From positions 1 through 64,000 of the IMG/VR virus record IMGVR_UViG_3300035208_001913: DNA of 64,000 bases. One strand, written 5' to 3'. Positions within the stretch are counted from its first letter, which is position 1. Every line of letters begins with the position of its first letter. This DNA is from a virus. Lineage: Duplodnaviria > Caudoviricetes. The position numbers and the translations under genes are program-made. Below, piece by piece: positions 5,356-48,999 of this stretch. The notes beneath the pieces were generated by a model. The model was not told the origin of the DNA. It searched no databases and was given only the letters and a program-made list of their open reading frames with translations.

Positions 5356-5367
5356 AATAATAAATTT

Positions 5368-6600: not shown

Positions 6601-6602
6601 AA

Positions 6603-7214
6603 TTAATTACAATTACAAGGTGAAACACTATAACTATCTAATCCTTCACATAACCTTTGTAGCCTTAATAATGCATTATTAAATGCACAATCATCCTGTT
6701 TACATTCTGCTGCTTTCAATGTATCATATAAATTTTGCTTCATTCTCATTATTGTCAAATAAGAAGTATCACAAGGATTACATAAATTTGCTTCCATTGC
6801 TATCCATCCTGTCATAACACAACAAACTACAGTACAATAAAAGTATTTCTTGTATGTAGTAGTAAATGTTCCTACTTGAGTACCATCTGATACAGTTAAT
6901 ATAATTTCATATATACCATCTACCATCACTAACTGTTGTTGTAAAAATATCAAAGGATATGTTGCACCCGGAACTCCTGTTAATACTGCTGTAATATCCC
7001 ATGGTGAATCAGTAATCTCTACGCCTGTTATATGATTTTTTATTGTTATCGTTGCTGATGTAATATCCTGTCTACGTAAGGTAGGATAAGGAGCAACTTC
7101 TAAATCACTCCAACCACCGGGGTTTGTAGTTACATTATATAATCCAGTATTATCATATATTTCAACATAATTACAATTTAATGTAGTTATATCTAATGCT
7201 AAAGTTAGTGCCAT
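6603..7214 (-). CDS. Tail hub-like structural protein
   Basis: DNTGLYN...NPGGW N-terminus, DGIYEI Ig-like strand, Cys-rich helical C-terminus; first gene of tail module. Confidence 0.55.
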   Translation of the reverse strand: MALTLALDITTLNCNYVEIYDNTGLYNVTTNPGGWSDLEVAPYPTLRRQDITSATITIKNHITGVEITDSPWDITAVLTGVPGATYPLIFLQQQLVMVDGIYEIILTVSDGTQVGTFTTTYKKYFYCTVVCCVMTGWIAMEANLCNPCDTSYLTIMRMKQNLYDTLKAAECKQDDCAFNNALLRLQRLCEGLDSYSVSPCNCN

Positions 7215-7227
7215 AATTATTTTTTTT

Positions 7228-7235
7228 CAAATTTA
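7228..7235 (-). promoter_or_regulatory. Bacteroidota-type -7 promoter element (TAAATTTG)
   Basis: Matches TAnnTTTG in the short intergenic gap upstream of the tail module. Confidence 0.5.
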
Positions 7236-7253
7236 TGAATTTATTTTTAAATA

Positions 7254-10200
7254 TTATTCTTTTTCTTCTTCACCATAATAATCTACCATAGTTTTTATAT
7301 CTTGTGATGTTGATACTAAACTATTTAATGGTAATGATGCTCTTATCTTTTTAAAGTTCATTTCAAAGATACCCTCTATAAATCTATTCATTATACTAAA
7401 GGCTGCAAATGTAGAATCCTTACCTATCATTCTTAATAGAGTAGGAATTACTAATATTGAATCTGAAGCATAAAAGAAATTCTTAACAAGTCTTGTTCTT
7501 AAAATAGGTTTATCATCATCTTTATCTCCAGTAAGTAATGACCATAATAACATTGATGCCATCCATACTAACCATGTAGTCATAAATCTTGCTAAATTTC
7601 TTGCTTTATGTGGTGATTGTGTCCAATATTCTTTGCTAAATACTTTCTGATCCTTAACGAATAAATCTCTACCAGCATTCATCATTGTCCTAAAATAGCC
7701 TTCCATATATACTCTTTTCCATTTAGCAACAGTATTTCCTTCTTCATCTTTAAAGTAATCTACATATCCTAATCCTTCTGAATAAGTTCCTTGTTGAACT
7801 GCATTATTAAACTTTGTCATAAAGAATGTCTTAAAAGTATTGAATAATTTTCCAACAAGCCATGTGCCCATAAGATTTTTCTCATTTCTACTATAAGCAC
7901 CGGTAACATAATTACTAGCTATAGTTTTTATTACTCTTATTTCCTTAAAGAAAAATGGTTTTGTTATTGCATCATCTATATTATTAATAAATCCACTTTC
8001 TAACATTTCATTCTTAGCTAATGCTAATCTTGCTATCTGTTCTGGAGTTTGTGATATACCATCTTTTCCATAATATCTTCTATCTTTAGTAATATCATAT
8101 ACTAATTCTCCTTTTTCATTTAATGATACTGAATCTCTCATACCTTGATTTCTCATATATGCTGCCATAACAACACCTCTTGCATAATAATCAGCTGCCC
8201 AGTTAAAGTAGTTAGCCATATGAGAACCTATAAAGTGTTTCTTTCCTACTTGATGTACTTGATGTGTTGCCATTTCATAATCAGTAGAATTAAATATCTG
8301 ATTTTCCATACCTAACTGACTCAAAAGATTATAGTTTTTAAGTACATCACCCGAAGCTGCAATAAGATCACCTACATTAAAGTATAATCCTTCTTTATTC
8401 TGTTGTATCATCTGTATTACTGAACCTGCTATACCTTCTATAAATGCTGTCATACCATTATGTACTAAACTTAATATACCTACATTAAGATTAGCAAACA
8501 TAACAAATGCAGAAGTGGTATTAGATACGTTAGTTATTATCTTATCTGCCTTAGCTGACTTAATCTGAAATCTCTTTCCTAATATAGTACTTCTTACATA
8601 ACTATCAAGATATTCTAAAGAATTTTTCTGGTCAAATATTTCATCTCCTTCATATATTTCGTTCATTCTATTTAAAAGAGAACGTGCTCCATTAATAACA
8701 GGTAATACATTTTCTTCATATTCCATTTTTCTTTCCATTGAAAGAACAAACATTTTCATTATTACCTCTAAATCCTTTGATATTAAATCTTGTCTTTTTG
8801 GATCTAACAATATCAAGTCATTAGTAGTTTCATCAAAACCTAATCCTAAATGTTTCTTTATATCACTTCTTTTACCATATTTAGTTTTATTAAGTGTTTC
8901 TGTAGAACCTGTATATATTTGTTTGAAAAAAGCATCAGGCATTTCATCAAGAAAATCTGTACCCGATTTATTATCATATATGCCCATTAAGTTTTCAAAA
9001 GATTCCATAGCATTTGCTGTCTGTTCTACAGTAAGATTAATAGCATCTTTAATATGAAACTTACCCATCTTTTCTGTTACTGTCTGATACATCCATGGTA
9101 TAGTACCTGGATTATAATTATAGATATTTTTATTTTCACCTAGTTCTTTAATAGCTTGTTCTATAGTATAAGGAAGTCCATATTGATGTTTTTTATGTAC
9201 TATCATTTTAGCGTACATATTAGTTATCTGATTAACTAACCATGCACCTTTTTTTAATATTTCTTTTCCTTCAGTAGTTTTGTTGAGCTCCTGAGCATAT
9301 TTATATCCTACAGGATCTAATTTTTCATCTGTTGTCCAAGCAACTCTACCTGTCCATACTTTTACATTATTACCCTGCATATCTTTAGCATTCTCATAGA
9401 CATATAATTTATCATAAGCTTTATATGAACTATCAACTACTTCAAATTTTACATCTTGTCTGAAATACTTAACAAAATCAGTAAATCCATTCTTATTAAA
9501 ATTAAGAATCTGTTGTACTACACTCATATGAGATTGTTCTGTAGCATCAGTGATACGACTAAGGACTTCATGTGGTACTGCATATTGTGTAGCAGTCATA
9601 TTATTTATTGTCTGTAAGTCCTTCATCCTATTCATTCGTTCCTGTGGTAATCCATTATTATCTAAAGCAAATATAGTTTTGATAAGAAATAATATTTCAT
9701 GGTTTTCTCTATCTGATATTTTCTTATTATCCATTTCAGAATAGATTTTAGATAATCTCTGTCTACATACTGTTATTTTATCATGGTTACTTAAACCATC
9801 AAAGTTTTCTACTACCTGTCCTTCTATTGTAAAACGTACTGCTTTTTCCTCTAAGTTATCTTTTCTGTTTTTATAAGCCTCATTATAAACTGCATTAAGT
9901 ACATCACCATAAGAATAATTACTATCTCTATATGCTGTTGAACTAAATAGTTTAAGCATCTCTGGACTTAACTTTTCTTTAAAGGAAGTACTTTTAAGCA
10001 TATTATGTAACTGTTCTGTATAATGCTGTCTTTCTGTCCATGATACTACAGGTGTAGAATTAGGATATAGTTGTATTATATTAACATCATCAATACCTAT
10101 ATTCCTATTACTTTCAGCTATTTTATTAGCTAATAGAGTAAGTTTAATATGACTTAGGTCTTTATAAATACTTTTTAATTCTATTCCCTTACTTGCATGG

Positions 10201-13200
10201 CTCATAGGACTTTCAAAAAGGTCAAGAACACCATGTACTTTTATAATTTCTTCATCAAAAAATCTTTTATTAGTTATCTGATAAAGAGAAATATTATATT
10301 TATCCTTATTATCTACTTTGTTTTTATATACTGATACAATGATATCATTAGTATCGAGAGTTTCATCATATAAATCTCTTAACACTTTATCTTCACTTTC
10401 TTTAAGTTCTTTATATGAATAGTATTCTGGAACTGCAAATGTAGAACGCATCATTATCCTACGTAATCTATTCAATGCTTCTAAATCATAAAGATAATCT
10501 CCTTGTGTATTCTTAGGTACATTAGCTCTAAAGTCTGTTATAGTACCACCGGCTTTTAATGATTTTAATGTAATGTCAAATGGACTATTTTTAATTTCTT
10601 CTTCGGTACGTTGTTTAATAATTTTAGCAATTATATTTGCCCATTCTGTTCTTGGTTTTCTAGTAAAATCTACCTTATCTCCATTAGGTAACGTATAATA
10701 AGGTTCTTCCATTTGTTCTAAAGCACTTATCGTTAAATTAATTTCTTTAAGTTCTGTAATTTTTAACGATTCAGGAATAATATTCTGTGGAGAAAGAGAG
10801 GCATTAAGGTCCTTAAAGTTATTGATTTTAGCATTTGATAATTGGTGGATTTCTTTATATCCAGACATTAACATAAGATGCTGTAATCGTTCTGTATCTA
10901 TTTCTAATTTTACTTTTTTATTCAAAATAAGATTAACCATATCTAAACCCAATTCATCAATAGAACTATTTACATTAGATACTAATCCAATACCTTTTAA
11001 TAAACCATTTATAAAATTGGTTATTCTACCTATAATATTTTTTATTCCGGTAAACATTCTATTAATAAATGATTGATCGCCTACTAAATTCTTTTCTATA
11101 AAAGCATTTACCCTATCTTGCGTATTAAGACCTATCATAGTGGCTATTACTTCATGTAATAGTTTATCTCCCTGATAACCATCATAACCTGCCTGTGATT
11201 TAATAAACTGTACTATAGGATGATTTTCATCTACCATCTTATTGGCTTGTTCCATTACTCTTTCATAAAGTAAAGGATTAGATTCTTTCATTAAAAGAGT
11301 ATAAATATGTCCAGATTCATGTAGTTGATTTTCTAATGTAACTAAATTAGGATTATAGTAGTAAATACCATTAGTTATTTCTCCTATTCCTTCAATAGTA
11401 TCGTCTGCAATAAATTTAATATTAGGAAAAGTATCTTGTAAAATACTCATAAATGTTTCTATAACATTATTAGCAAATAACTTATTAGTTTTAGAACGTA
11501 ATTGTTTAGTAGATACATCTTCCTGTAGCTTTAATGTAACACTCTGCATAGAGTTAGCTTTCTTAGTTACTTTTGCTCCATTTTCTATTGCCTCATATTC
11601 AGATTGTATTCCACTGATAACTTTAGCTGTTCCGGCACTTGTCATTACTATATCACCTACAGTAGTATATCTTTCTGAATTGCCTTTAGCAATTACACTA
11701 AGGTTTTTATTGTAAGAGTCTATAACAACTTCACCTTTATCTTTAAGAATATCTAAAGATTCTTTAGAAAGAGGAAAATAGATATACTTAGACATACTTT
11801 TAGATATATTCTTATCTGTATTAAGTCCATGAGGATTGTTCCTTAGAGGCATTGTAGGATAATAGAAATTAGTCTTTTCATCTTTTGTAACTGCAAGTCC
11901 TAATATTCTACCTTTCTTTTGTCTTATTCTGGTATATTTATTATTAGAATCATCTTTAAGTTCTGATTTTGTTTTATAATCGGTTAATTTAAATTGATGA
12001 TTATAGAGTAGTATTTCAGTCATAAGATTTTCTGACAAGTCTTTTTCTATCTTAACATCATACTTTTTTATATTTTCTTCTTTATAAAGACTTTCAAACC
12101 CAGTTTCAGTATTACCTACCTGTATGAATTCTTTATAAGTACCATTAGATGTACTATTACCATAAACAATTAAATGGTATAATGAGTACAATTTCTGAAT
12201 ATCTATTGGTAATCGAGCAAATGATTCTCTAAGAATAAATTTAGTATCTTGTTCAATAAATTTACTATTGTATATTTGCATCTGTGGATATCCTTGCTGT
12301 GTAGTAGTTACAGATAATTCTCTTAAAAATCTTCCTGCTTTATCTCCTAAGTTCTGCATAATTAATTTATGTGTCTCAGGAAAGCTATTAACAAATTTAT
12401 CAATTTCTATTGCGGTACCTGTACTTGCTCTATATATTTCATTTTCAGCTATTTTAAGATTTAATTTATCATAATCTATACTTTCACTTAAAGCACGTAT
12501 AATATTACCATCATAGACTTTTGATACAGCATTGTTAAGTCTCTGAAAAGTTTCATCATTATAAGGTATTCCTGTAGTATCTACTATTGCATTACGAAGT
12601 TCTTTGTTTGCAAACTCATGGAAGTTCTTTTCTATTGCTAATTTTTGTGCATAAAGAGAATTGACATAACTTCTATAAAGAGAATAGTTATGGACAATAT
12701 TTGCAATATTAATATGACTTCTTTTAAATATTTCATCTCTTTTACTATCATCACTTTTATTAGTATAATATTTAATAGAGAGGTTAGCCATTTGATTACC
12801 TACTGTATGAGAAACAAATGGTTTATTAATATAATTTACAAGATCTTCTATGGTATTAAATCCAGTAGCTTCTTCGATATTTCTTATCAATAACTGTAAA
12901 CTTTCTACTCTACCATCAATACCTTTGAGCATTTTGGCAAACTCTCCAAATCGTTGTAGCTGTTCCCCTAATAAAGACGCCTCCTGATACTTTATAATAT
13001 TTTCACCTAATGATTCATCTATATTAAGTTTAGATGATAATCTTCTAAAAAAGTTTTTAAAGTTATTAGCATGATTTTTATAGTCGGCTGTTTCTCCAAA
13101 TCCCATAAACTTAGTAAGACCATCAACCATTTCATTTATTTCAGTTTTATTCTTCTTTGCTTTATTTATAGAGTTTTCTAAGTTTTTATAAACATACATT

Positions 13201-16200
13201 CTATAAATTTCAAGATTACCTATTCCTTCTAAAGATTTAAGACTTTCATAAATTGTTTTAACAATATCCGTAGAATTAATAAAACCTTGTAATTTTGCTT
13301 TATAATCTGTCTGAGAAGTATAATTCTTAGATTGTATCTTTTCAAGTTCTGCTATCTTTTCATTGATAGTAAATGCCATTTCATCATTAACCTGTCCTGT
13401 ATTTATTAATGCATCATATTCCGCTTTAAGTCCTACAATAGATTCTGTTAAAGTTTTTATATCATTATCTTGTTTGTACTTTTGAGCATCCTTGTATCCA
13501 ATATAATTTTTAAGTACATTCTCCATAACAATTTTCATATTGCTTTGGACTTGTTCTTTTATAAAATCATCATTTACATATTGTGATTCAAGAGCACGTA
13601 ATTCTTTATTAAGAGATTTTATTTCATTCTTATCTTCTGTTCCCTGAATTTGTTCTTTTTTAGCCTTAATCATATCCCCTAACGTACCTCTTACATCTTC
13701 AAGTTCTAAAGTATTATCTTCTCTTATTTCTTTTGCTGCTATACCTATGGCATCTTTAAGAGTAATTCTTTTATTACTATTCATATTATGGGAATTATTT
13801 ACAATTCTCATAGCCTCAATAATAACATCATCTTTTAAACTATTCAATATATTTTCTCTTATTGTAGCAGGATTATCATTCTTAGACATAAGAAGTAAAC
13901 CAGAGATAAGATTAGTATTTATTTCTGATATATTAAGTCTTCCTAAAGCACCAGATTCTTTAACATTATCAGTAGCTAAATTTAAATATTCTCCTACTGC
14001 CTGAATAACAGCAAGTAATACTTCCTGTGAACGTTCAATATAGTTACCATCTTTATCATACATCTGTAAAGATTCATCTAATCCATTAACCATAGCAGTT
14101 GGATTTAATGAAAATAATTCAGAAAGAAACACCATCATATTAGCAAAGTGTCCTACAATACCTTTCCCGGAGTCAGTAATACTTATTGCTTTCATTATAC
14201 TTGTAGGTGTACTCATAGTATCTGGAAATTCTTTAGCATCATCTTTTCCTGTATCTTCTAAGAATGCTTTTGTAAATTCAGTATTAGTTTTAGAAAGAAT
14301 AAGTCCAGAGTTTTCTAAGTCATTATAATATCCTTGGAATACATCAAATAACTGATTACTTAATCCATCACCTTTCTCACTTGTTCTATCAATTCTACCA
14401 TCATTAGATATAGTTCTAAAATACATTTGTATAGGGTCGTTGTCATAGTCAGATCCATCATGAGTATTCTTCTCAGGTGCTAACTCTACAGCATTCTCCA
14501 TACCATTATTAAAATGTATTATCCTTCCTATTGAAGCTGTTTCAGAACCCGTTGTAGGTACTCTTACTACTAATACATCGAGAGCTTCATTTAATGTTTG
14601 GTAATAATCTATTACTGTTTCAAGAGCAACATTAAATAAGACCGGAATAGTATGTTCAGTCCCTTTTACTATTTGACGTTTATTCTTCTCATATTGACTA
14701 ATTATATAATTTCTTATTCCCTCATTAGGGATAATAGTAAATAATTTGTCTGATGTTCGAATATTATTTTGTATTGCAATATTGATAAATTGACTTTGTA
14801 GTTCTTCTCTACTTAAACGTTTGTTCCATGCCTGATACATATTTCTACTACCAGCATTGGTAACTATAGTCATTGCTTCATTTAAAGAAGTATTGGTATT
14901 CATACCAAATCTATTTCTAAAAGGAAAATCAATAGCTACTTCTTCAGGCACATATTTAATACCACTATTTAAAAGACTTTCTAATCCTTTAGTTTTTACT
15001 TGATTTAAATCATCAACTGTTAACCAGATATTGTTAGTATCCTCATAGTGTCTTGTATTTATCTTTCTCCTTGTATAACCATCCATTCCTACTGAATCAT
15101 CAGTGAGTGTATTACCAGTAGGGTCTAATTCTGCGGCAGTATGAACAGAACCTGTCGTATTATCAAAATAGTAGTTATTATAAGAAGGTATCTGAACACC
15201 ATCAAAACCAGTCATTGTAAGTTTATAAGCATCATTGAAATATGATATTATATTTTCAATATGTTTTGTTGTTGCAGCATCTAATGGAGTTACAGATGAT
15301 TGAGCAACTAAATCACGTCTCTGAATATTATCTTTACTTACTTTTTCTTTAGCTAACTGATTAAGGAATGCTTTAAATTCTTTTTCCTTACCTTTTTTGG
15401 TTAAGTCCAAAAAGGTTGTAGCAGCTAATTCTATATTCTGTGTAAGAATTCTATCAATAGAATCAGCTCTCGAAGCATTATTTTTAAACAATTTTATTAT
15501 ACGTGTCAACTGAGTAGCTAATACTTTTTGTTTTTCATCAGCACGTTTCTGTGTAAGTGATTGAAGTCCTAAAGAACTTGTAGGTAATACTAATTTCTGA
15601 TTTAATAATTCTTCTCTCTGTTCTAAAGGTAATACTGCATTATCTCTTGTTAATACTTCACCATTAGTATTATTCCAGAATACCTTATTTGATTGTTCTA
15701 TCTTTACAGATGATGAAGGTGCCAGTAAATCAATTGTTACAATTCCTTGTTCGTCAATTTCTGCAATAACTGTATCTAATGCTGACATTAAATCTTTCTT
15801 CTCTTTATATAATTCTACTATTCTATTCCAAACGTTTTCACCAAGCATGAATTTATTCATGTCAATCCAAAACTTAGAACGTTTATTGAATATTTCATTC
15901 TCTGTAGCTGTTACAGAACCATGTTTTATATAATATGACCTTGCTGTTACCGAATCAAAAACTGTTATAACTGTCTTTATAGCACCAAAATGAATTCTGC
16001 CATATTCTCCGCCCTCTGATATCTGCATTTTTCTCATAGATATAAGATTTAAATATCCCATACCATTACTTGCTAACTCATCATTATATTCATTATTATA
16101 AGATTTTAATGTAGCACCCAAATCTTCAATATGCATTACATTAAATGTACTATTCATACCTCCCTTCGTAGGGGTAATAGGTATCATAGGAGCTATATCT

Positions 16201-19200: not shown

Positions 19201-22200
19201 ATCCCCTCATGTCTCCCTACATTCTCTTGGAACATACCATTGATACCATATAACTTAATACGCATATCTTCAAGCATACCCATTAACCTGGCATTATCTC
19301 CATATTTCATAATAAGATTAGAGAATACATCTACAAACTCTGAGTTTCTTTTACCTATGACAGATTGTATTTGTTCTCTTACCTCTACTTCATTCTGAAT
19401 AAGATTTGGTGTTGATACTACTAATGTATCATTATCACCATAAAATCCTTGGTCTTCAAAATCTGGTTCTACATAATCCTTATTATTAATATCAATATTT
19501 TCATTTTTGCTTACTGAATAATTAGGTTGAGTAATAAACTTCATTTTGGTAGTAAAGTTTTCTGTTTCTATAACTCCTACTGTTCCATATACATTTTCAA
19601 AAAGTATAGGAACATCAGACTTAGCTTCGATATCATCTAAAGACTTATTAAGTTCTCCTAATATCTTTTTCATTGAGGTTGTTAAAGACTTAGAATCATA
19701 ACCCCATATTTTTAAGTTATTATAATTAGTTTTAGTATTGGTAACTATCTGAAAGAATACTCGAGCCTCACTACCTTTAGGAATAAACTTTTCTAAGCTA
19801 TTCATATTCATAGCAAGGAACTTATACATTTCTGTTTGTTCAATACTTTTATATGTTTCACGATATATATCTGATTTTGTTATTTTCTGTTCTTGTTTTA
19901 ACTTATTTAATTCATTTTTAATTTGTTTTTCAATTTCTTCTATATATTTATCAGTAACATTATTAATAAATTGTATAATTTTATTTGTTTCTATTATTTT
20001 AGGTTCTACTTTAATTTGTACTATTGTAGTCGGATCATTAACTCTTTCAACTTTTACATAATATTCTAATTTCTTTGAACGTAAATATTTTTGTTGTACT
20101 TTTAATTCATCAGATACTAACTTAAATCCTGATTGTGATAATCGTTCTTGAAAAAGTAAACTATTTAAAGTTATTGCTTCATTTTTATAATCATAAAAAG
20201 CATATCCATTTTCTACTGATTTAAGAGTAGTACTTATTTTTTTATTTGGATTATTGGCAAGAGACTTAATAAATTTTAATTTATCAATATTGAAAGCAAT
20301 ATTCTGTCCTTGAAAATCATCTTCACCTAAAGCATTTTTAAATTCTATTTTATCAGTTACTTCTTTTGGATTTATATCATTGATGTAATTACCTATATCT
20401 GTTGCTGATAATTTAATTGCATTCTTCTTTACCTCTCCATTACTTCTTTCTTCCCTTTTTTCATAATCAGTTTCTACAGTAGGAACATATCCTAATATAT
20501 TTACATCACTATCAGTAATACCTAAAGTACTTAAATCACCTAATTCTAATAAACCCTTTAAAGTCCTAAATGAAGTTGCCCGGACATCAACATAATTGTT
20601 TATAGTTATTCTATCTAATTCTACCTGTAATACATGTTCTATGTCTTTTTCTAACGTTCCATTTGCATCAAGTAAATTAGTCTTAGCAATATAAGATACT
20701 ATTACAGGAACAGGAATATCTTCATTAATAAGTTTTTTAATCTCTGAAGCTATCATTTGTTTTCTTACTATATAAGAATTTTTAGTTGTAAAAATCTGAG
20801 TATCATTTTCAAATACTAATGGTATATGACTACCATATAAAGGCATTACATTATTATTTCCATTATTCCATATCTCACTAAATTCTTTAAATTGGGAACC
20901 GGTACCACCACGTTTATAAATTTTACCAAATTCCTCTACAGTCATTTCTTTATCATCAAAAGCAATCCATGGTAATCTTTTCTCTCCTTGTTCAAAAAAT
21001 GTACTATTCTGTTCTGTGATAACTACATCGGCACCATCCTTAGTGTTGATATATCTTATTCCTAATGCAATATTAGGATTAGTAGTTTGTATTCTTTTAT
21101 TAATATAGAAATCAGATTCATCAATTATTAAATCTCCGACATTATTAATAGTATCGAATAAGGTTTTAGTATTTTGATTAGTCTTTAGTGTGGTATATGT
21201 TTCTGAAATTTCAGTATCAGTCATAGTCATTATGCCATTATTGGCAGGATAATAATAACCTATTTCAGTAAGTTCACCTTTGACAAACTGAACTACTGAT
21301 AAATTATTTACTGCATATCCCTGTTTTTGTGCTAATGCTGCATAAATAGTAAGTAATTCTTTATCGTATTGTGTAAGGGTTTTAAAAGCACCTATACCTA
21401 CTTTTCTTATATATATATCTACTATAGGTATAATCTTTTTATCTACTTCTTTTTGTCCTATTACTTTTACTAAGAAAGGATGTCCTTCATATTTCTGTCC
21501 ATCTATTGTAGCAGACAATGTATGACGCCAAAAGTTAGTACCATAAATATCAGCCAGAGGACTTGCATTTTGATTTACCCATGCATCTATTACTTGTTGT
21601 AATTTAGTATCTATCTCTTGTGTAAGGATAATATCTGTTGATTTACTTACTACTTTAGTAGGTACTAAGGTAGAAGCACGAACAGCACCTTCTGTTGGCT
21701 CATAATTATTTCCTTTATTTGTTTTATGATTTTCATTTACTATCTCTTGTGCTTTTTCTGTATCTTCTGGTTTAAATAGTAATGCTGTTCTATTAGACTT
21801 AACTCTTACAGGTGGTGGTTTAGGTATTGATATATCATCACCTAATATATCTGACATATCCTTAACAAGAGTATTTACTTTTTCATTTAAAGTATCTTTG
21901 TTAACAGGAACATATTTGCTTTCTTCTATTTTAACTTCTGTAAATCTATCTGCCATCATCTTAGAGTTGGCAGTATAGAACATTATAAAACCTGCTTCTT
22001 TTGTTCTTGTACTTGCTGTATAACCTGCTCTACCTATACTTAGTTTTTCGTCTGTAATAGCATAATTCTCTACTTTAGGTTTATCATTTGATAAAAAGGC
22101 ATAAGGATCATAAGCAAAGAAAACCATATTAGCCGATAAACCAGAAACCATATTATTCTTTTCGAGTGTTTCATCAAGTCTAAGAACTTTTAATCTCTCT

Positions 22201-25200
22201 GAAAAAGAAGTAAAACGTGCTCTATTATTTTCATCAGATAAGAAAGATTCTCTTTGTTGTTCTGTCTGAAAAATTAATACTGCATCATTACCCGGGGTAT
22301 TAACTGCATCATAAAAATTATTAATAACTTCATCAAGTGTATTCTTCATAAATACACCTTCTCTTATATTAGTACCTATGATAGTATTACCTTGGAAATG
22401 TCCATCTGGTATAATAGCATTATTATTAGTTTGAGGAATACCATGTTTAAATAAAGGTGTAAATGATTCTTGGAATTCTATCGTATAAGGATTACCTACT
22501 CTATGGGCATTTTTAAGAGCTGTGCTTCTATCTTTAGATACTTCTGCTATAAAGTTATCATTAAACGAAATAGATGCAACCTGAGAAGAGTCACCTAGTA
22601 AATAAATCAATTCAGTCTTGCCAGCTTTTCTTTTTTCTTGTGCTATTTGTAATATACCTGCTTTCTTAATATTGTTTATCTCTTTACCTTCTTTTAAAAT
22701 AAATTGGTCTACTGCTGTTGCCTCATCAAATATTATGATATCATCAAGGGCTGACGTATTATTAGCTTCTTTAATAAATGCTTCATGAACAGTCTTAGTA
22801 GTTATATTTAAGTTAGGAAATACTATGGCTCTATTTTTATGTTCATTGTTTAAAGCAACCGTAGGAGATATTATAGTAATATTTAATTTTTCTAAACCTG
22901 ATATCTTTCTGTATATTTCAAAGATATCTAAGATAATAGAAGATTTACCTGCTCCACCAATACCTGTAATACCAAAAATATTCTCAGTAAGAGACCTCTT
23001 ATCCTCATTCTTTTCAGTCATTACCTGAGATATATTCTTATTGTTTACTGTAATATCTTGTGGATTTATAGCGAAGATAACACCATGCATTATTACATCT
23101 ATCTGTTCTACAGAATAAGGTAGTTTATTTTCTCTTACTTCTATAAGATGATCTTTAACTGCTCTATAAATATCAGAATATTTTAATGGAGTAGAAGCAT
23201 TAGCAAGTCTATAAAGTTGATTGAGTAAGGCAAATCTATGTGCAAAGTATTCTCTTGGATTAGTTTTACTATTCATAAGAGCTCCGGGGTCCATAACATA
23301 GTTTCCTATATTATCGTAATAGTCTACAGAATTTTTAATATTGATAGCACCATTTTCCATATACTCATTAAGTGAGTTGTATGGCATACTATTTTTACCT
23401 TTATTAATATCTTTATTTGCTTCTAATTCTTCATAGAGTCCTTTTAAATCATTATTAATTTTTTCTTTACTTGTAGTACTATCTAATGATTTTAAGATAA
23501 GTCTTGATAATTCTATTAAATGTTTTTTATTATCTAAAGAACTAAATAAATAAGCACCTATAAGCATCCAATCCTCAGTACTTCGGTCAACTGTTAAATC
23601 AACATTCTTTATTTCTCTATTACCAAAAGATAATTTCTTTAATGATAAAAGATATTCAGCTAATTCATCTATATTAGTTCCATAATCTAAAGTTAATTGT
23701 GCTTTTATAAGTGTAGATTTGATATCAGCTTTCCAATTACTCTTTTCTTTATTATACGCTTGTAATGATTCAGACAATTCTATCTCACTAATCTTTTCAA
23801 TAATAGCATTAGTTTCATCTAACAACATTGTTCTTTCTTCTGGAAAGAGAATATTTGTATTACTTAATAATCTATTAGGATTATGTTCTTCATCTTTAGT
23901 TCCTTTAAGAGTATCAATAAAATCAGTAAAGTTTAAATAGCCTTTAACATTTTCATTAAGTATTCTCCTAAATTGTATTAAGTTATTAATTACTTTTTCA
24001 ATATTTTCTGTAGGTGGCAATCCTTTTTCTACTATATTTTCATAGTAATCATTTAAAGTTTGTCTTATATTAACAGGTACTTGTTCTTGTTGTCCATTTT
24101 TTCCAGTTTGTGTTGTTGCCCATCTATCAAAATGCAAAGCCTTAATACCATCATTTCTTATCTGTTTACCTATTGTAGGATCTTCATTATAGTTTTCAAA
24201 TGTAAGTCTTTTAGATTTTTCATATTTCTGTCCCCAATTTTCATCTGGCATAAAATCATAAAAATCATAATCTTCACCTATATTTTCTCCTTCAGTATAA
24301 TAATTAAGAACTGCTTCACTAAATTGTTTATATTCACTTCTTATTTTACCTATATAATCATTAAGTTCAGTTACTCTTGCTTCATTAGAGATTACCTGAG
24401 AAGCTTTAATAACATTCTGTATAGATTTATTAATTTGGGTTAAATTAGTCTGTAAACTTGTAAGATTAGTTCCTTTATCAGTAATAGATTTTAACGATGC
24501 AGTATGTTTTGCTAATTGAGTATCAATATTTTTATCTAATTGATTATCTAATATCTGTTCTTGTTGGTCAAGTACTTCATTATATTTTTCTACTGCATAT
24601 TTAATACCTGCTTCATGTCCATTAGAAGTATGTACATAATGTTCACTTGGTGAAGTATATCCTTGTTTATATGCTGCCCCACTAAAACTACCTAACTGTG
24701 ATTGTATTTCTACTAAGTCAAGTAAGTCCCGGAATGTTCTTTTCTGTATAATGTTCTTAATATAAATCTCAGTAGAGTCAGCTAAATGTTTATTTACATA
24801 TCCATCAATACCTTTAAGATATTTTGCTTTCTGTTCTGAAGATAATCCTTTAGGCATCTTCTTACGATAATCTTCTTCTAACTGTCCTTTAACTCTATTC
24901 TCTGCATATATTTTAAATACTTTTTCATCAAGTATTCTATAAGAGTACATAATACTTGTTTTCTTAGTTGCACTTTCTGGTTGTACATATTTAGCAATCT
25001 TAGCATCAAGTGCTTGTATTTGTTTATCTATTGTTCCTGTTTGTTCCTCTACTGACTGTTCTTTTTTTATTGTTGATACTTCTATTTCTTCTGGAGTTAG
25101 TTCTTCACCCTTTTCAAGTTTATCTTTTATTCCTTTAAGGGTATCCTTAGTTTCAACTAATCCAAATGCTTCTTCCATAAGTGTAGTACCTACCATACTA

Positions 25201-27206
25201 GTCATTAAAGACTCTGCCTGACTAAAATTATTTTCTACTGCTCTTTTAATTAATAATTGTACTTCATCAACAAACATATTAATATGAGCATCAGCAACTT
25301 CCTTACCATCTACTACTATACCCGGGCCAAAGATATTAGGATCTATTTTTTTTGCATCGAGCATTTCTTGTCGTAATGCTTCTATAGCTGGTTCATAATT
25401 TCCATCTTTTACTTGTGTCAATATATTTTGAACATATTGTTGTGCAAATAGTTTTTGCTCATTATTCTTTTTTGAACCATGTCCTTTCATTCCAAGATTT
25501 GAAAGCATACCTCCAAATGGTGCTGATAGTCCTGCCATTGCTGCTTCTTCCCAATTCCAAAATTCTGGTTGTAAAGGTTTTTCTCCTGCTCTCCATCTTA
25601 ATGCATTATCTACATCTTCCTTACTAGTTTTCCATATATTATAAGGTAATCTTTCTTTATTCCCTATTGGACTTTCTCTTTGATATTCTGTAGTTCCATC
25701 AGGAAGTAATACAGAATTAAACTTATGATTGCCATACATAGCAAGAGTAGCTTCCCCTTGTGATTCAGCAAGACTATTTAAAGCAATATCTATTGGATAA
25801 TCCATAAATCCTTCTGCTAATTCTTCAACACCTTCTTCAAGTCCCATGGCTACATATTTACCCCACTTATGTTCGCCCATTTTACGTAGGCTATTGTCAA
25901 GTGAATAGTAAAATGATTTTAGGATATTATCTCCTGCTTTTCTTTGTGCAAAAGGTAATGTACTTATTGCTCTTTTAGGTCCGGCTAATTGATTATAAGC
26001 TTTTGTCCATTGTGTATTAAACTTATCCATACCTATAGCATCCCTTAAATAAACGTTTGCCATAAATATTCTTTCAGAAGCATAAGTAGCTGCTGCCCAT
26101 GGTATAAACATTAAAGAAGTTATCTTTGGATCCACTCCTTGTTGAATTGCCATATTACGCATCATACCACCTGCTTGAAAACCACCTACAAACAAAGAAG
26201 ATTGCATAGCAAAATTAGCTGCTAAATTTTTAGATGAATCTAATCCTCTTTTCATAGAGTTTATCATACTCATTCTACCACCATAACTAGCTTGTGCAAA
26301 CTTAGATAAACTTGCTATCTGTCCTATACCATCACCAAAAGAATATAAGAATGAATTAAGATTATCAAAAGCACCTTCTTCTTCATTCTGATGTTTAGCC
26401 AATGTACCACTAAATAAATTGGTAACAGCATTATTGGCTTGATTAAAATACCATCCTTCGGGAGTTCTTTCTTGTCCTGATATAGAATAAGCAAAATCTT
26501 CCATTACTGCAAGTGGAGATAATAAACCTGTTGCCATTTTACTTACAGCACCATCTAATACTCCTTTTAATAATGAACCAAGTAATGATCCTTCCATACG
26601 CCTTGTACCAAAGAAACTCTGTACTGACTGTGTAGGTTGCATTACATTCAAAGGCATTACCTCTGTTATAAAAGATTGTCTATCTTCATCCCATACTGTT
26701 ACAGGTATTTCTCCATTTAATATACTTGACTGTGGTGCTCCGGAAAAATACTGTCCATCTTTTTTCCATATACCAGAACTCTTAGCAACTTCTTCTTGAT
26801 GAAATTTCTGTACTGGTCCTAATGCTACATCAAAATATTCTCCTGTTTGTGGTTTTGGTGATGTTATTGCCGGTACCTTTTTATTAGTTACATATTTTAA
26901 TGGAGTATTAGTAGTCTGAAAAGGAATATACATATTCTGCAAATAGTTCTCACTGGATTTATAGCCGTCATATAATTTGACAGCTTCTCCATAAGTCTTT
27001 TGCAATACATCATCTGTAATGTTAGGATTCTTACTTTTTACGAACTTAGAATAATCTTCAAACTTTTCTAATCCTATAGGGTCTTTACTATATTGCATGT
27101 CTCCTACAGTTGCACCATTAGCAATACTTGAAGCAAATGGTGTTATCTTATCTTTAGGAGGATCTTCCTGTGTAGGAACTACTTGTTGTGTATTATTATC
27201 TGCCAT
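7254..27206 (-). CDS. Giant virion-associated two-barrel RNA polymerase polyprotein (crAss-type) with SF1 helicase-like and two zincin domains
   Basis: 6650 aa. RNAP motifs in order: DFIKR, NGMGY, K..V/K.GS, SSVK, GLQ, TQL, G...VQ, RVPT, GSDYDND (14436-14450), VGHFAN, ATDNVK. Walker A GIGGAGKS (22941-22964), Walker B IIIFDEA. HEGMH (19197-19211) and HESGH (11307-11321). Confidence 0.9.
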   Translation of the reverse strand: MADNNTQQVVPTQEDPPKDKITPFASSIANGATVGDMQYSKDPIGLEKFEDYSKFVKSKNPNITDDVLQKTYGEAVKLYDGYKSSENYLQNMYIPFQTTNTPLKYVTNKKVPAITSPKPQTGEYFDVALGPVQKFHQEEVAKSSGIWKKDGQYFSGAPQSSILNGEIPVTVWDEDRQSFITEVMPLNVMQPTQSVQSFFGTRRMEGSLLGSLLKGVLDGAVSKMATGLLSPLAVMEDFAYSISGQERTPEGWYFNQANNAVTNLFSGTLAKHQNEEEGAFDNLNSFLYSFGDGIGQIASLSKFAQASYGGRMSMINSMKRGLDSSKNLAANFAMQSSLFVGGFQAGGMMRNMAIQQGVDPKITSLMFIPWAAATYASERIFMANVYLRDAIGMDKFNTQWTKAYNQLAGPKRAISTLPFAQRKAGDNILKSFYYSLDNSLRKMGEHKWGKYVAMGLEEGVEELAEGFMDYPIDIALNSLAESQGEATLAMYGNHKFNSVLLPDGTTEYQRESPIGNKERLPYNIWKTSKEDVDNALRWRAGEKPLQPEFWNWEEAAMAGLSAPFGGMLSNLGMKGHGSKKNNEQKLFAQQYVQNILTQVKDGNYEPAIEALRQEMLDAKKIDPNIFGPGIVVDGKEVADAHINMFVDEVQLLIKRAVENNFSQAESLMTSMVGTTLMEEAFGLVETKDTLKGIKDKLEKGEELTPEEIEVSTIKKEQSVEEQTGTIDKQIQALDAKIAKYVQPESATKKTSIMYSYRILDEKVFKIYAENRVKGQLEEDYRKKMPKGLSSEQKAKYLKGIDGYVNKHLADSTEIYIKNIIQKRTFRDLLDLVEIQSQLGSFSGAAYKQGYTSPSEHYVHTSNGHEAGIKYAVEKYNEVLDQQEQILDNQLDKNIDTQLAKHTASLKSITDKGTNLTSLQTNLTQINKSIQNVIKASQVISNEARVTELNDYIGKIRSEYKQFSEAVLNYYTEGENIGEDYDFYDFMPDENWGQKYEKSKRLTFENYNEDPTIGKQIRNDGIKALHFDRWATTQTGKNGQQEQVPVNIRQTLNDYYENIVEKGLPPTENIEKVINNLIQFRRILNENVKGYLNFTDFIDTLKGTKDEEHNPNRLLSNTNILFPEERTMLLDETNAIIEKISEIELSESLQAYNKEKSNWKADIKSTLIKAQLTLDYGTNIDELAEYLLSLKKLSFGNREIKNVDLTVDRSTEDWMLIGAYLFSSLDNKKHLIELSRLILKSLDSTTSKEKINNDLKGLYEELEANKDINKGKNSMPYNSLNEYMENGAINIKNSVDYYDNIGNYVMDPGALMNSKTNPREYFAHRFALLNQLYRLANASTPLKYSDIYRAVKDHLIEVRENKLPYSVEQIDVIMHGVIFAINPQDITVNNKNISQVMTEKNEDKRSLTENIFGITGIGGAGKSSIILDIFEIYRKISGLEKLNITIISPTVALNNEHKNRAIVFPNLNITTKTVHEAFIKEANNTSALDDIIIFDEATAVDQFILKEGKEINNIKKAGILQIAQEKRKAGKTELIYLLGDSSQVASISFNDNFIAEVSKDRSTALKNAHRVGNPYTIEFQESFTPLFKHGIPQTNNNAIIPDGHFQGNTIIGTNIREGVFMKNTLDEVINNFYDAVNTPGNDAVLIFQTEQQRESFLSDENNRARFTSFSERLKVLRLDETLEKNNMVSGLSANMVFFAYDPYAFLSNDKPKVENYAITDEKLSIGRAGYTASTRTKEAGFIMFYTANSKMMADRFTEVKIEESKYVPVNKDTLNEKVNTLVKDMSDILGDDISIPKPPPVRVKSNRTALLFKPEDTEKAQEIVNENHKTNKGNNYEPTEGAVRASTLVPTKVVSKSTDIILTQEIDTKLQQVIDAWVNQNASPLADIYGTNFWRHTLSATIDGQKYEGHPFLVKVIGQKEVDKKIIPIVDIYIRKVGIGAFKTLTQYDKELLTIYAALAQKQGYAVNNLSVVQFVKGELTEIGYYYPANNGIMTMTDTEISETYTTLKTNQNTKTLFDTINNVGDLIIDESDFYINKRIQTTNPNIALGIRYINTKDGADVVITEQNSTFFEQGEKRLPWIAFDDKEMTVEEFGKIYKRGGTGSQFKEFSEIWNNGNNNVMPLYGSHIPLVFENDTQIFTTKNSYIVRKQMIASEIKKLINEDIPVPVIVSYIAKTNLLDANGTLEKDIEHVLQVELDRITINNYVDVRATSFRTLKGLLELGDLSTLGITDSDVNILGYVPTVETDYEKREERSNGEVKKNAIKLSATDIGNYINDINPKEVTDKIEFKNALGEDDFQGQNIAFNIDKLKFIKSLANNPNKKISTTLKSVENGYAFYDYKNEAITLNSLLFQERLSQSGFKLVSDELKVQQKYLRSKKLEYYVKVERVNDPTTIVQIKVEPKIIETNKIIQFINNVTDKYIEEIEKQIKNELNKLKQEQKITKSDIYRETYKSIEQTEMYKFLAMNMNSLEKFIPKGSEARVFFQIVTNTKTNYNNLKIWGYDSKSLTTSMKKILGELNKSLDDIEAKSDVPILFENVYGTVGVIETENFTTKMKFITQPNYSVSKNENIDINNKDYVEPDFEDQGFYGDNDTLVVSTPNLIQNEVEVREQIQSVIGKRNSEFVDVFSNLIMKYGDNARLMGMLEDMRIKLYGINGMFQENVGRHEGMHFVLRHLLTSNELQKVLEEATIEMEAKNYKGSVHEFIADSFQNQKISNKPKSFFRKFVDAFKRFLNWVGLYNYGFNEFLKMAEVGYYSKRTAHSAIYDPDLMKVKNIYNSQAVNKKVEDAFPTSDIMQIAKYEVRRHVNMFLKSSKNVESRGFDLVTAISHAYKVLNDKAEKVRYEKFGPNDLQLRGETQMSYQDVRDLITNNIIGLNLNSKYASVAMMDKDIFNNIVQQVYEGLDVENNKIFGTPVIYGEDNESKNAYAGMNSDVENALTNIPMLVPALNKQKEEIENTYNLRGSVPFGDVNQIFQRIVEKISNHKNAYDITFSDILVVLEEMQRGSIKSTGNKATNSKMRRDIYLSILVEFGNRYVNSNTISSEKLMGKRFLVENMNENYLSNYSRNIKSKLVAWKNLENAIASVYRTGKSKTFYKANNETKVLQSQGTRTENDLKKKIQDSLQSKFFTHTGQITKEAIRISSMYDFTVNAKNRQEEAFIITQDGEKTTRVITESVADIRKMMQDLGVPFQDKIGFSDLYERKDYRDNLVTMLKSLKYNVLLIEELEKLDVDKRVAAIKEKTKFIMTSGNRDLIYLHKNITSGKEIKGAEEIRSGMVEGEENSNMLLNTMKPHNYYDFIAELGKDIFEYINISDSVVTLFAGRTFNNHNMTSPFDIAMGNMDTIDNKRNEVLTALEQGIETPLAEIKKDGTIKYNNALLKDNGLKAFIQEYGTLIGAEENNKENVTKDLTMSDFMTTIFETTFFGNLKQGKHDRMSVLLNPFSDKSRRELMKFSINEGQSEFSQLNKVINDSNFNTNKFIDITQTIVDYYSKFSAQRENALLTTLKSLGIKIDSKNYSNGVKIDSAQVKAIESSSLRRNTDYIINTLNGVSYLSAGNAIVLRNTLFNHKFINDWNTKNKGEVFNNLIQEQSKDLIKYMSDIDYTPSEYVKNYYKIDNTKEVVPFNEKHPLIQSFVASTLLFNESFSHIQRAPITNFKNIVDFIKRSAKDIAPMIPITPTKGGMNSTFNVMHIEDLGATLKSYNNEYNDELASNGMGYLNLISMRKMQISEGGEYGRIHFGAIKTVITVFDSVTARSYYIKHGSVTATENEIFNKRSKFWIDMNKFMLGENVWNRIVELYKEKKDLMSALDTVIAEIDEQGIVTIDLLAPSSSVKIEQSNKVFWNNTNGEVLTRDNAVLPLEQREELLNQKLVLPTSSLGLQSLTQKRADEKQKVLATQLTRIIKLFKNNASRADSIDRILTQNIELAATTFLDLTKKGKEKEFKAFLNQLAKEKVSKDNIQRRDLVAQSSVTPLDAATTKHIENIISYFNDAYKLTMTGFDGVQIPSYNNYYFDNTTGSVHTAAELDPTGNTLTDDSVGMDGYTRRKINTRHYEDTNNIWLTVDDLNQVKTKGLESLLNSGIKYVPEEVAIDFPFRNRFGMNTNTSLNEAMTIVTNAGSRNMYQAWNKRLSREELQSQFINIAIQNNIRTSDKLFTIIPNEGIRNYIISQYEKNKRQIVKGTEHTIPVLFNVALETVIDYYQTLNEALDVLVVRVPTTGSETASIGRIIHFNNGMENAVELAPEKNTHDGSDYDNDPIQMYFRTISNDGRIDRTSEKGDGLSNQLFDVFQGYYNDLENSGLILSKTNTEFTKAFLEDTGKDDAKEFPDTMSTPTSIMKAISITDSGKGIVGHFANMMVFLSELFSLNPTAMVNGLDESLQMYDKDGNYIERSQEVLLAVIQAVGEYLNLATDNVKESGALGRLNISEINTNLISGLLLMSKNDNPATIRENILNSLKDDVIIEAMRIVNNSHNMNSNKRITLKDAIGIAAKEIREDNTLELEDVRGTLGDMIKAKKEQIQGTEDKNEIKSLNKELRALESQYVNDDFIKEQVQSNMKIVMENVLKNYIGYKDAQKYKQDNDIKTLTESIVGLKAEYDALINTGQVNDEMAFTINEKIAELEKIQSKNYTSQTDYKAKLQGFINSTDIVKTIYESLKSLEGIGNLEIYRMYVYKNLENSINKAKKNKTEINEMVDGLTKFMGFGETADYKNHANNFKNFFRRLSSKLNIDESLGENIIKYQEASLLGEQLQRFGEFAKMLKGIDGRVESLQLLIRNIEEATGFNTIEDLVNYINKPFVSHTVGNQMANLSIKYYTNKSDDSKRDEIFKRSHINIANIVHNYSLYRSYVNSLYAQKLAIEKNFHEFANKELRNAIVDTTGIPYNDETFQRLNNAVSKVYDGNIIRALSESIDYDKLNLKIAENEIYRASTGTAIEIDKFVNSFPETHKLIMQNLGDKAGRFLRELSVTTTQQGYPQMQIYNSKFIEQDTKFILRESFARLPIDIQKLYSLYHLIVYGNSTSNGTYKEFIQVGNTETGFESLYKEENIKKYDVKIEKDLSENLMTEILLYNHQFKLTDYKTKSELKDDSNNKYTRIRQKKGRILGLAVTKDEKTNFYYPTMPLRNNPHGLNTDKNISKSMSKYIYFPLSKESLDILKDKGEVVIDSYNKNLSVIAKGNSERYTTVGDIVMTSAGTAKVISGIQSEYEAIENGAKVTKKANSMQSVTLKLQEDVSTKQLRSKTNKLFANNVIETFMSILQDTFPNIKFIADDTIEGIGEITNGIYYYNPNLVTLENQLHESGHIYTLLMKESNPLLYERVMEQANKMVDENHPIVQFIKSQAGYDGYQGDKLLHEVIATMIGLNTQDRVNAFIEKNLVGDQSFINRMFTGIKNIIGRITNFINGLLKGIGLVSNVNSSIDELGLDMVNLILNKKVKLEIDTERLQHLMLMSGYKEIHQLSNAKINNFKDLNASLSPQNIIPESLKITELKEINLTISALEQMEEPYYTLPNGDKVDFTRKPRTEWANIIAKIIKQRTEEEIKNSPFDITLKSLKAGGTITDFRANVPKNTQGDYLYDLEALNRLRRIMMRSTFAVPEYYSYKELKESEDKVLRDLYDETLDTNDIIVSVYKNKVDNKDKYNISLYQITNKRFFDEEIIKVHGVLDLFESPMSHASKGIELKSIYKDLSHIKLTLLANKIAESNRNIGIDDVNIIQLYPNSTPVVSWTERQHYTEQLHNMLKSTSFKEKLSPEMLKLFSSTAYRDSNYSYGDVLNAVYNEAYKNRKDNLEEKAVRFTIEGQVVENFDGLSNHDKITVCRQRLSKIYSEMDNKKISDRENHEILFLIKTIFALDNNGLPQERMNRMKDLQTINNMTATQYAVPHEVLSRITDATEQSHMSVVQQILNFNKNGFTDFVKYFRQDVKFEVVDSSYKAYDKLYVYENAKDMQGNNVKVWTGRVAWTTDEKLDPVGYKYAQELNKTTEGKEILKKGAWLVNQITNMYAKMIVHKKHQYGLPYTIEQAIKELGENKNIYNYNPGTIPWMYQTVTEKMGKFHIKDAINLTVEQTANAMESFENLMGIYDNKSGTDFLDEMPDAFFKQIYTGSTETLNKTKYGKRSDIKKHLGLGFDETTNDLILLDPKRQDLISKDLEVIMKMFVLSMERKMEYEENVLPVINGARSLLNRMNEIYEGDEIFDQKNSLEYLDSYVRSTILGKRFQIKSAKADKIITNVSNTTSAFVMFANLNVGILSLVHNGMTAFIEGIAGSVIQMIQQNKEGLYFNVGDLIAASGDVLKNYNLLSQLGMENQIFNSTDYEMATHQVHQVGKKHFIGSHMANYFNWAADYYARGVVMAAYMRNQGMRDSVSLNEKGELVYDITKDRRYYGKDGISQTPEQIARLALAKNEMLESGFINNIDDAITKPFFFKEIRVIKTIASNYVTGAYSRNEKNLMGTWLVGKLFNTFKTFFMTKFNNAVQQGTYSEGLGYVDYFKDEEGNTVAKWKRVYMEGYFRTMMNAGRDLFVKDQKVFSKEYWTQSPHKARNLARFMTTWLVWMASMLLWSLLTGDKDDDKPILRTRLVKNFFYASDSILVIPTLLRMIGKDSTFAAFSIMNRFIEGIFEMNFKKIRASLPLNSLVSTSQDIKTMVDYYGEEEKE

Positions 27207-48412: not shown

Positions 48413-48999
48413 TATTTTTTTGTTTTAGGTAAGTAGTCAAACATTCTCCTTCTCATCTCTATTTTCTTATTTTTAGAACCTATCTTTATTAGTTGTTCTA
48501 ATTCTTTAGACAAAGATATTAAAGATTTACTTAATGCTAACGCATCAGCTTTTTCCTTACTATTATCTATTTCTACTTGTACCTTTTTATTTTCTATTAA
48601 TCCATTAATTTCTACAGGTACCTCAACCGTTACAATCTTTGTGAATTTGATATTTCCGATTCTTGTTATAAGATCATCCATATCATTCTGAACATTTTTT
48701 CTTAATCTTTCTTCTCTGGAACATTGAATTTCTTCGTACAAATTTATGAAATTTTTTACATCTTTATTATTTTCATATAAATTTATATCTTCTCCACCTA
48801 AATGTCTTTTACAAATATACAACTTTCTTTGAGAAGTTAGCATTTCTCTGTAAATACTTTCGTTGCAATACATCCAAAAAATATATGTAAGAGCTTTATC
48901 ATAGAACTCTTTACCATGTTTTTTTAATTTAAGGACTTCTTCAATATATTGAGCTTCCTTAATAACTTCTACTTTACCATCTATTTCTTCTAATATCAT
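48412..48999 (-). CDS. Helical packaging-region protein (possible terminase small subunit)
   Basis: KALTYIFWMY...SIY pattern with C-terminal coiled coil; overlaps both TerL and portal genes. Confidence 0.45.
   Translation of the reverse strand: MILEEIDGKVEVIKEAQYIEEVLKLKKHGKEFYDKALTYIFWMYCNESIYREMLTSQRKLYICKRHLGGEDINLYENNKDVKNFINLYEEIQCSREERLRKNVQNDMDDLITRIGNIKFTKIVTVEVPVEINGLIENKKVQVEIDNSKEKADALALSKSLISLSKELEQLIKIGSKNKKIEMRRRMFDYLPKTKK

Follow-up and report, generated by a model that had tools for sequence, protein, structure and literature searches.

What kind of protein does a phage encode in one 20-kb reading frame, and what might such a protein do? The question is raised by an open reading frame (ORF) in the opening 64 kb of an IMG/VR virus record of 94,993 bp, rated complete by CheckV (IMGVR_UViG_3300035208_001913; Duplodnaviria, Caudoviricetes). 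This stretch of 64,000 nucleotides (nt), analysed as a whole, is called the window below, and the 6,650-residue product of the ORF is called the giant protein. The gene probably encodes a “polyvalent” cargo protein that a very divergent crAss-like phage packs in its virion and injects into the host; in this protein three others are fused in the gene order of phage phi14:2 and a superfamily 1 (SF1) helicase has been added. What supports this reading directly is a set of homologies, the order of the parts, the conservation of catalytic residues, the crAss-like context and a cargo-like lack of cysteine (Cys). The features concerned are as follows (aa, amino acid positions in the giant protein).

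7254..27206, minus strand: giant ORF, 6,650 aa, ~758 kDa, sole Cys at aa 5814
25347..27206, minus strand: N-terminal region, aa 1-620, Gly/Ala/Ser-rich, with an EEGxEE motif, kept in three giants
21912..23054, minus strand: predicted SF1 (Dda/RecD-like) helicase core, aa 1385-1765 (Pfam, hhalign, invariant motifs)
21282..21524, minus strand: conserved block just after the helicase, aa 1895-1975, G[HR]PF..PIVDI..K..AAY, kept in three giants
18927..19379, minus strand: predicted zincin-type domain Z1, aa ~2610-2760, HEGMH (2666-2670) plus HEFIAD (Glu 2704)
13743..16307, minus strand: predicted crAss-type RNA polymerase core, aa 3634-4488 (hhalign against seven Crassvirales cores)
11007..11459, minus strand: predicted zincin-type domain Z2, aa ~5250-5400, HESGH (5296-5300) plus HEVIAT (Glu 5352)
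7281..9008, minus strand: gp49/gp65-type C-terminal region, aa 6067-6642 (hhalign)

One chain and two relatives

The frame runs for 6,650 codons without any stop, against ~612 expected by chance from the base composition of the strand; the remaining two frames of the minus strand have 669 and 1,074 stops across the same stretch. The protein is recorded identically on three contigs, and a length-restricted protein search returned two further giants, P0002 (6,635 aa) and P0003 (7,520 aa), which share 25-35% identity with it, have the same domain order and keep every catalytic residue (P0002 is colinear along its full length, at 27-35% identity). The original prediction, a reading of the letters made before any database search, had described a single uninterrupted 20-kb ORF, and with no stops, three contigs and two colinear homologues that description stands. 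The motifs that it listed also lie where it placed them: GIGGAGKS at 1415, IIIFDEA at 1490, LLGDSSQV at 1536, AHRVGN at 1567, SGLSA at 1688, YTASTRTK at 1729, HEGMH at 2666 and HESGH at 5296; DYDND is at 4253.

In the alignment of the three giants, the invariant positions include the key residues of each predicted enzyme: G1415, G1418, G1420 and K1421 of Walker A; D1494-E-A, G1538, R1569, VSGL (1687-1690), T1730 and R1734 in the other helicase motifs; H2666/E2667/H2670 with E2704 in Z1; R4215/P4217/T4219 and D4253/D4255/D4257 in the polymerase; and H5296/E5297/H5300 with E5352 in Z2. Beyond these relatives the searches were empty. Word-based searches found no shorter relatives of the polymerase and C-terminal regions, there were no related loci in IMG/VR or the JGI metagenomes, and the polymerase region had no tblastn match among GenBank phage genomes. 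A PHROGs scan of the giant protein gave no family and an NCBIfam scan nothing meaningful. The lineage of the gene is poorly sampled.

A crAss-type RNA polymerase core

The polymerase assignment comes from profile-profile comparison. The reference was an alignment of seven Crassvirales polymerase cores (phi14:2 gp66, crAss001 gp50, cr50_1, cr118_1, cr55_1, Dulem 41 and DAC17), against which the three-giant sub-alignment gave an hhalign probability of 95.2% (expect value, E, 2.9e-8) over 650 colinear columns. Reversed, column-shuffled and cross controls scored at most 18, compared with 77 for the real alignment, with probabilities of at most 0.1%. VRVPTTGS...GSDYDNDP falls in register with YRIPNQGQ...GSDFDIDK of gp66, and the downstream GHFANM and ATDNxxE blocks are aligned as well; in the giant protein RVPTTGS occupies aa 4215-4221 and the catalytic DYDND loop aa 4253-4257 (nt 14436-14450). 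A crAss-type polymerase, with a DxDxD loop preceded by an R-x-P-T motif, is thus supported at the level of sequence profiles, not at the level of the fold, and to that extent the polymerase core of the original prediction was borne out by this comparison and its controls. The nearest named Atlas cluster for the region is the viral PF05183 cluster (QDE-1-type polymerase; 0.79), which serves as a lead only. Matches of the giant protein to “Tako8” entries in the PDB were dismissed, their scores being sums over repeats.

The loop itself, DYDND, is a further distinctive point of the giant polymerase. A similar loop, DYDID, with the same Tyr, is found in gp33 of Flavobacterium phage Fpv2 (a 4,401-aa virion protein, locus 3805-17010), where an HEVIH motif follows ~960 residues on; gp33 offers an example from a cultured phage of a polymerase fused to a downstream zincin.

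Three polymerase-block proteins in one chain

The chain would comprise three parts: a gp67/gp47-type protein (aa ~1-2800) that ends in Z1 and has the helicase inserted in it, a gp66/gp50-type two-barrel RNA polymerase (aa ~2800-4980), and a gp65/gp49-type protein (aa ~4980-6650) that begins with Z2. For the first part the evidence comes from Z1. A hidden Markov model of aa 2560-2800 matches the HExxH regions of gp47-type segments or proteins in seven phages (cr108_1, cr55_1, Dulem 41, cr50_1, cr273_1, cr118_1 and crAss001, in the last of these gp47 itself) with E values from 8e-9 to 1e-2. The Crassvirales pattern is YHEAFH followed after ~40 residues by AE(D/E)FR, and its equivalent in the giant protein is RHEGMH...HEFIAD. 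In Dulem 41 and Carjivirus the Z1-type domain belongs to the protein encoded before the polymerase and stops 100-200 residues short of its end; by this measure the first fusion boundary would lie near aa 2800. Atlas look-alikes of Z1 fall in the LPD23, LPD1 and ART-PolyVal clusters, that is, among polyvalent-protein domains, and are again a lead only.

For the third part, Z2 has weak profile matches to the cr118_1 protein downstream of the RNA polymerase (E 4e-4) and to the gp49/gp65-type alignment (E 2e-3). In phi14:2 gp65 an HExxH motif is found at the corresponding position (aa 247), and such a motif follows the catalytic loop by ~960 residues in Fpv2 gp33 and by 1,043 in the giant protein. 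The C-terminal region matches the gp49/gp65-type alignment over 514 columns (hhalign 97.8%, E 1e-12) and crAss001 gp49 alone at 90%. The comparisons support the view that Z1 and Z2 are zincin-type domains homologous to those of unfused Crassvirales proteins. Two HExxH/Glu domains of this type had been predicted, and with homologues in unfused proteins and invariant residues in the three giants they appear sound.

The closest parallel is the set of separate genes in phi14:2 (g067-g066-g065, where gp66 is the virion RNA polymerase, PDB 6VR4) and in crAss001 (gp47/gp50/gp49), which occupy the same place in the structural module. In phi14:2 the parts come in the same order as in the giant protein and the polymerase has a homologous core with a DxDxD loop; in both phages the flanking proteins carry an HExxH domain, the C-terminal region is homologous and the proteins are poor in Cys. 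The giant protein differs in holding all three in one 6,650-aa chain together with a helicase and in having DYDND in place of DFDID, and identity is too low for detection by BLAST or phmmer.

Fusion as such has precedents. A passage in a preprint (bioRxiv 10.1101/2020.03.07.982082, with reference to Yutin 2018) describes the three virion proteins of some crAss-like phages as fused in one huge, likely cleaved polyprotein, and the same preprint notes in orthologues of gp65 a zincin-like protease, which might activate the polymerase. GenBank names point the same way: Carjivirus gp45 is an “RNAP associated protein fused to zincin protease” and gp44 an “RNAP catalytic subunit fused to unknown RNAP subunit”. 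More distant likenesses are found in polyvalent proteins, which have interspersed zincin domains and helicase add-ons and for which autoproteolysis before or after injection has been proposed (Iyer et al. 2017, PMC5512222). The giant protein resembles them in being a giant multi-domain protein with zincins among its enzymes and a helicase add-on; they are delivered with the DNA, and delivery would be a further likeness. N4-type virion polymerases always carry a zincin-type domain (PMC5512222), and a 2026 structure of the N4 enzyme has an HExxH subdomain and a large helical region after the polymerase, an arrangement like that of the giant protein (PMC13434306), although the N4 polymerase is T7-like and that of the giant protein would be of the two-barrel crAss/QDE-1 type.

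Other regions of the chain fared less well. Hydrophobic regions had been predicted at both ends. The N-terminus proved only mildly hydrophobic and is rich in Gly, Ala and Ser, while the C-terminus does have three moderately hydrophobic segments (6230-6260, 6541-6559 and 6577-6595); no clear transmembrane helix was found, a single segment exceeding 1.5 on the Kyte-Doolittle scale. Nuclease-like domains, predicted without coordinates, were not confirmed: the giant protein has no match to a nuclease family in Pfam or NCBIfam, and hhalign of the unassigned regions against Crassvirales exonucleases gave probabilities of only 0.1-2.4%. The one candidate for such an element is the block at aa 1895-1975, where an Asp and a Lys are conserved; it lacks a regular (D/E)xK and matches no family. 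Its loose resemblance to the end of RecB-type nucleases has no profile support.

Cysteine depletion

The giant protein has one Cys in 6,650 residues, where ~86 would be expected from the mean of 1.29% in the phage's other ORFs of at least 150 aa (P ~3e-36). P0002 and P0003 also have one Cys each, and four ORFs of the window are free of Cys altogether (27213-29441, 29446-30807, 42080-43195 and 44692-45582). The depletion extends to all Crassvirales polymerase-block proteins examined, at 0.02-0.29% Cys; in cr124_1, where TAG is read as Gln, the value is 0.76%. Among the depleted proteins are some whose presence in virions has been verified by proteomics, namely phi14:2 gp65-67 and crAss001 gp47/49/50. 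We infer that passage through the periplasm in an unfolded state constrains such proteins, and that the loss of Cys reflects this. The helicase module has no Cys, compared with 5-7 per ~440 residues in free Dda-like helicases, which suggests that the module travels with the rest of the chain.

An SF1 helicase module

The module lies before Z1, ~2,500 residues upstream of the polymerase core, and is a predicted Dda/RecD-like SF1 helicase inserted in the first part of the fusion. Its motifs are Walker A (1415-1422), Walker B (DEA, 1494-1496), III (GDSSQ), IV (HR1569), V (VSGL, 1687-1690) and VI (TxxxR1734). With a 401-aa piece as query, the Pfam family Viral_helicase1 scored 24.4 bits, above its cut-off of 21, and precomputed annotation of the homologue P0002 lists PF13604 and PF13245. 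In hhalign, the helicase region matched two fused Suoliviridae helicases at 95.6% (E 1.3e-8, 398 columns; motifs I, II, III, IV and VI in register) and five Dda-like helicases at 95.4% (E 1.8e-8), and controls were negative. An SF1-type ATPase had been predicted from the P-loop and later motifs, and the profile-profile comparisons support it. The match to T4 Dda and RecD-like enzymes of the SF1B class covers the module's first RecA-like domain and takes in Walker A, Walker B and motif III; the module differs from them in being embedded in a 758-kDa chain, in lacking Cys and in being very divergent (phmmer with the helicase piece against 1.8 billion representatives returned the query itself as its sole match).

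The two Suoliviridae proteins are polymerase-helicase fusions in RefSeq: cr50_1 YP_010110216 (4,774 aa, named “DNA helicase”) and cr118_1 YP_010110531 (4,946 aa, named “exonuclease V”). Both have a crAss polymerase core with DFDID at ~aa 3155-3212 and C-terminal matches to AAA_30, AAA_19 and UvrD_C_2 (E 5e-21 to 2e-25). Like the giant protein, they combine a gp47-type segment with a Z1-type zincin, a crAss polymerase and a Dda/RecD-like SF1 helicase in one chain. They differ in three respects: their helicase is C-terminal, after the polymerase (aa ~4250-4910), whereas that of the giant protein stands before Z1 and the polymerase; their gp49/gp65-type protein is a separate gene; and their helicases give strong Pfam matches (E 1e-21 to 1e-25), that of the giant protein a borderline one. 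The names of these two records (loci 5617-19941 in cr50_1 and 5101-19941 in cr118_1) derive from the C-terminal SF1 domain and mask a virion RNA polymerase and a zincin.

We found no paper on a helicase fused to a crAss polymerase, although these RefSeq records exist. One question put to the original prediction was whether its architecture would prove common and already described. This is largely so, given the published fused polyproteins and the SF1-polymerase fusions of Suoliviridae; the new points are that all three proteins are fused, in a lineage that is barely sampled, that the helicase lies upstream and that Cys is extremely scarce. The helicase module is absent from Carjivirus gp44, cr55_1, Fpv2 gp33 and the examined part of cr273_1, and since it is missing from several crAss-like polymerase blocks it can be regarded as an optional cassette.

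What the chain may do

Under the proposal made here, the chain would be kept inside the capsid and passed in unfolded form through tail and periplasm, either before the DNA or together with it, and would then refold in the cytoplasm; the crAss001 study argues for partial unfolding at ejection (PMC10172136). The polymerase would transcribe the early arm, which is oriented the other way. Processing or activation of the chain may fall to the two zincins, ~130 residues before and ~300 after the polymerase segment. Zincin autoproteolysis has already been proposed for polyvalent proteins and crAss polyproteins (PMC5512222; bioRxiv 10.1101/2020.03.07.982082), and because the same zincins are present where the genes are separate, excision from a fusion cannot be their sole role.

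The role of the helicase is less certain. In vitro, single-stranded or denatured DNA is a good template for gp66 and duplex DNA a poor one (bioRxiv 10.1101/2020.03.07.982082). Our tentative suggestion, favoured among those considered but short of an even chance, is that the helicase, joined to a polymerase with a preference for single strands, unwinds the incoming duplex and supplies that polymerase with template. A stronger form of this idea is that coupling of an SF1B helicase to the virion polymerase has been selected and arose more than once, upstream here and downstream in Suoliviridae, the helicase supplying the single-stranded template that is needed; we regard this as doubtful.

Counter-defence offers a second explanation. 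The helicase could be a DNA-protection effector that enters with the DNA, as in the polyvalent protein DarB of P1, and that removes restriction and RecBCD-type enzymes, stays ahead of them or sits on the entering DNA end. Polyvalent proteins commonly pair zincins with helicases for early-phase conflict (PMC5512222), the Atlas look-alikes of Z1 belong to polyvalent-protein LPD clusters, and the sporadic, optional occurrence of the helicase among crAss-like phages is typical of accessory defence-related domains. Yet in both lineages examined the helicase is fused to the polymerase block and not to methylase- or ART-type effectors; it is SF1B-like, while DarB-type helicases belong to SWI2/SNF2; and Pfam and NCBIfam scans detected no defence-related domain beside it. 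On this balance a counter-defence role seems rather unlikely.

The helicase might instead be a translocase that pulls the genome into the cell, alone or with transcription, anchored by the hydrophobic C-terminal segments. Transcription-coupled genome entry is established for T7 and N4, the moderately hydrophobic segments are present and the ATPase residues are all invariant. However, Dda/RecD-type enzymes move on single-stranded DNA and not on duplex, the C-terminal segments include no clear transmembrane helix, and the module is missing from most crAss-like phages, so that we consider this role improbable. A replicative function for the SF1 domain was judged unlikely, as a DnaB-like gene (record 76131-77465) is present elsewhere in the genome. 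Finally, it could be argued that the single frame is an artefact of stops lost in assembly or is not made as one chain (internal starts), as the three parts are separate genes in most Crassvirales and the segment boundaries are only estimated, but an artefactual fusion is very unlikely given the identical protein on three contigs, two homologues at 25-35% identity that keep the same unbroken order, other fused giants of 4,400-5,800 aa in reference genomes, and zero stops where ~612 are expected.

Several observations weigh against a virion-packaged fusion of polymerase, zincins and helicase. Neither Z1 nor Z2 matches a curated zincin family in Pfam or NCBIfam, and aa 3600-4540 have no sequence match in Pfam, PHROG or PDB, 6VR4 included. 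Searches of the phage's own genome with PF18818 (MPTase-PolyVal) and, for nucleases, with PF12705 were empty too but say little, as their first filter also passed over AAA_30. In the helicase, AAA_30 (24.1, cut-off 27) and AAA_19 (22, cut-off 25.1) fall below their curated cut-offs with the 401-aa piece, and motif V is atypical, with Ser in place of the usual Gln/Lys, and was aligned by eye only. AlphaFold2 models of the helicase (aa 1385-1765, single sequence) and the polymerase (aa 3640-4540, three-sequence alignment) reached a pLDDT (predicted local distance difference test score) of 32 and 37.9, respectively, and are unusable as evidence of fold. The N-terminal region (aa 1-620) has no detectable relative among known Crassvirales proteins and the middle regions (aa 620-1340, 1800-2560, 2800-3600, 4540-5230 and 5420-6050) do not match their Crassvirales counterparts, so the segment boundaries are estimates. 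Most crAss-like phages lack a fused helicase, and the module is therefore not essential to this type of polymerase. Packaging, ejection, cleavage and all enzyme activities of the giant protein, lastly, are inferred.

Genomic setting

The giant gene follows a set of structural genes on the same strand.

48996-51023, minus strand: predicted terminase (PHROG, E 7.5e-45)
45878-48412, minus strand: predicted portal (PHROG, E 6e-52)
40587-42059, minus strand: predicted major capsid protein (PHROG, E 6e-18)
30819..34877, minus strand: predicted crass muzzle protein (Pfam PF25731 crAss_MUZ, E 5.7e-34), two genes upstream of the giant gene
29446-30807 and 27213-29441, minus strand: two Cys-free ORFs (453 and 742 aa), between the muzzle and giant genes

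With predicted muzzle, portal, capsid and terminase genes in one module, the genome is, on its gene content, that of a very divergent crAss-like phage; tblastn matches of the portal are confined to Crassvirales-type portals, at 21-27% identity. In phi14:2 the order, in the same reading direction, is terL, portal, capsid, g071, g067, g066 (RNA polymerase) and g065, and in crAss001 the muzzle gp44 is followed by the cargo proteins gp45 and gp46 and then by the RNA-polymerase-associated gp47, gp49 and gp50, all detected in virions (PMC10172136). This shared gene order, together with the four structural genes, puts the giant gene in the position of the “transcription block”. The 453- and 742-aa ORFs, separated from the muzzle gene and the giant gene by gaps of a few bases and without a match in family searches, sit in the position of crAss001 gp45 and gp46 (C1 and C2). 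The claim that the cargo set is fused thus applies to the three large polymerase-block proteins, which share one chain; two smaller Cys-free genes in the C1/C2 position stay separate upstream.

Downstream of the giant ORF, among tail genes, a 392-aa protein (4177-5355) has a Fib_succ_major domain (Pfam E 4.9e-19). Two genes resemble GIY-YIG/NUMOD homing endonucleases, one in the window (55409-56167, between a glycosyltransferase cassette and the upstream genes) and one in the early/replication arm (record 73603-74292). The early arm (record 64001-94993) encodes, besides the DnaB-like helicase (record 76131-77465), a DUF1064 protein, and no DNA polymerase was recognisable among its ORFs of at least 200 aa; this minimal replication set resembles that described for some crAss-like groups. 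Outside the window there is also an apparent tandem duplication of ~6.2 kb (record ~82,982-89,216 and 89,217-94,993), in which the duplicated ORF series (323, 218, 203, 110, 120, 140 and 103 aa) takes in two radical-SAM-like genes. The repeat could be genuine, or assembly could have created it where the linear record ends.

Implications

The phi14:2 virion polymerase barely transcribes duplex DNA in vitro. A helicase that recurs in cis with the polymerase, in a position that varies by lineage, is a concrete candidate for the missing template-opening activity at the start of transcription on the injected genome. On the stronger, doubtful form of this idea, the giant protein would need no other partner to begin early transcription on the duplex as it enters, and classical promoter melting would be bypassed. 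The near-total absence of Cys, in turn, may offer a simple sequence marker that could help to recognise injected proteins in uncultured phages. In other respects the giant gene mainly adds to the crAss “transcription-block” fusions already known.

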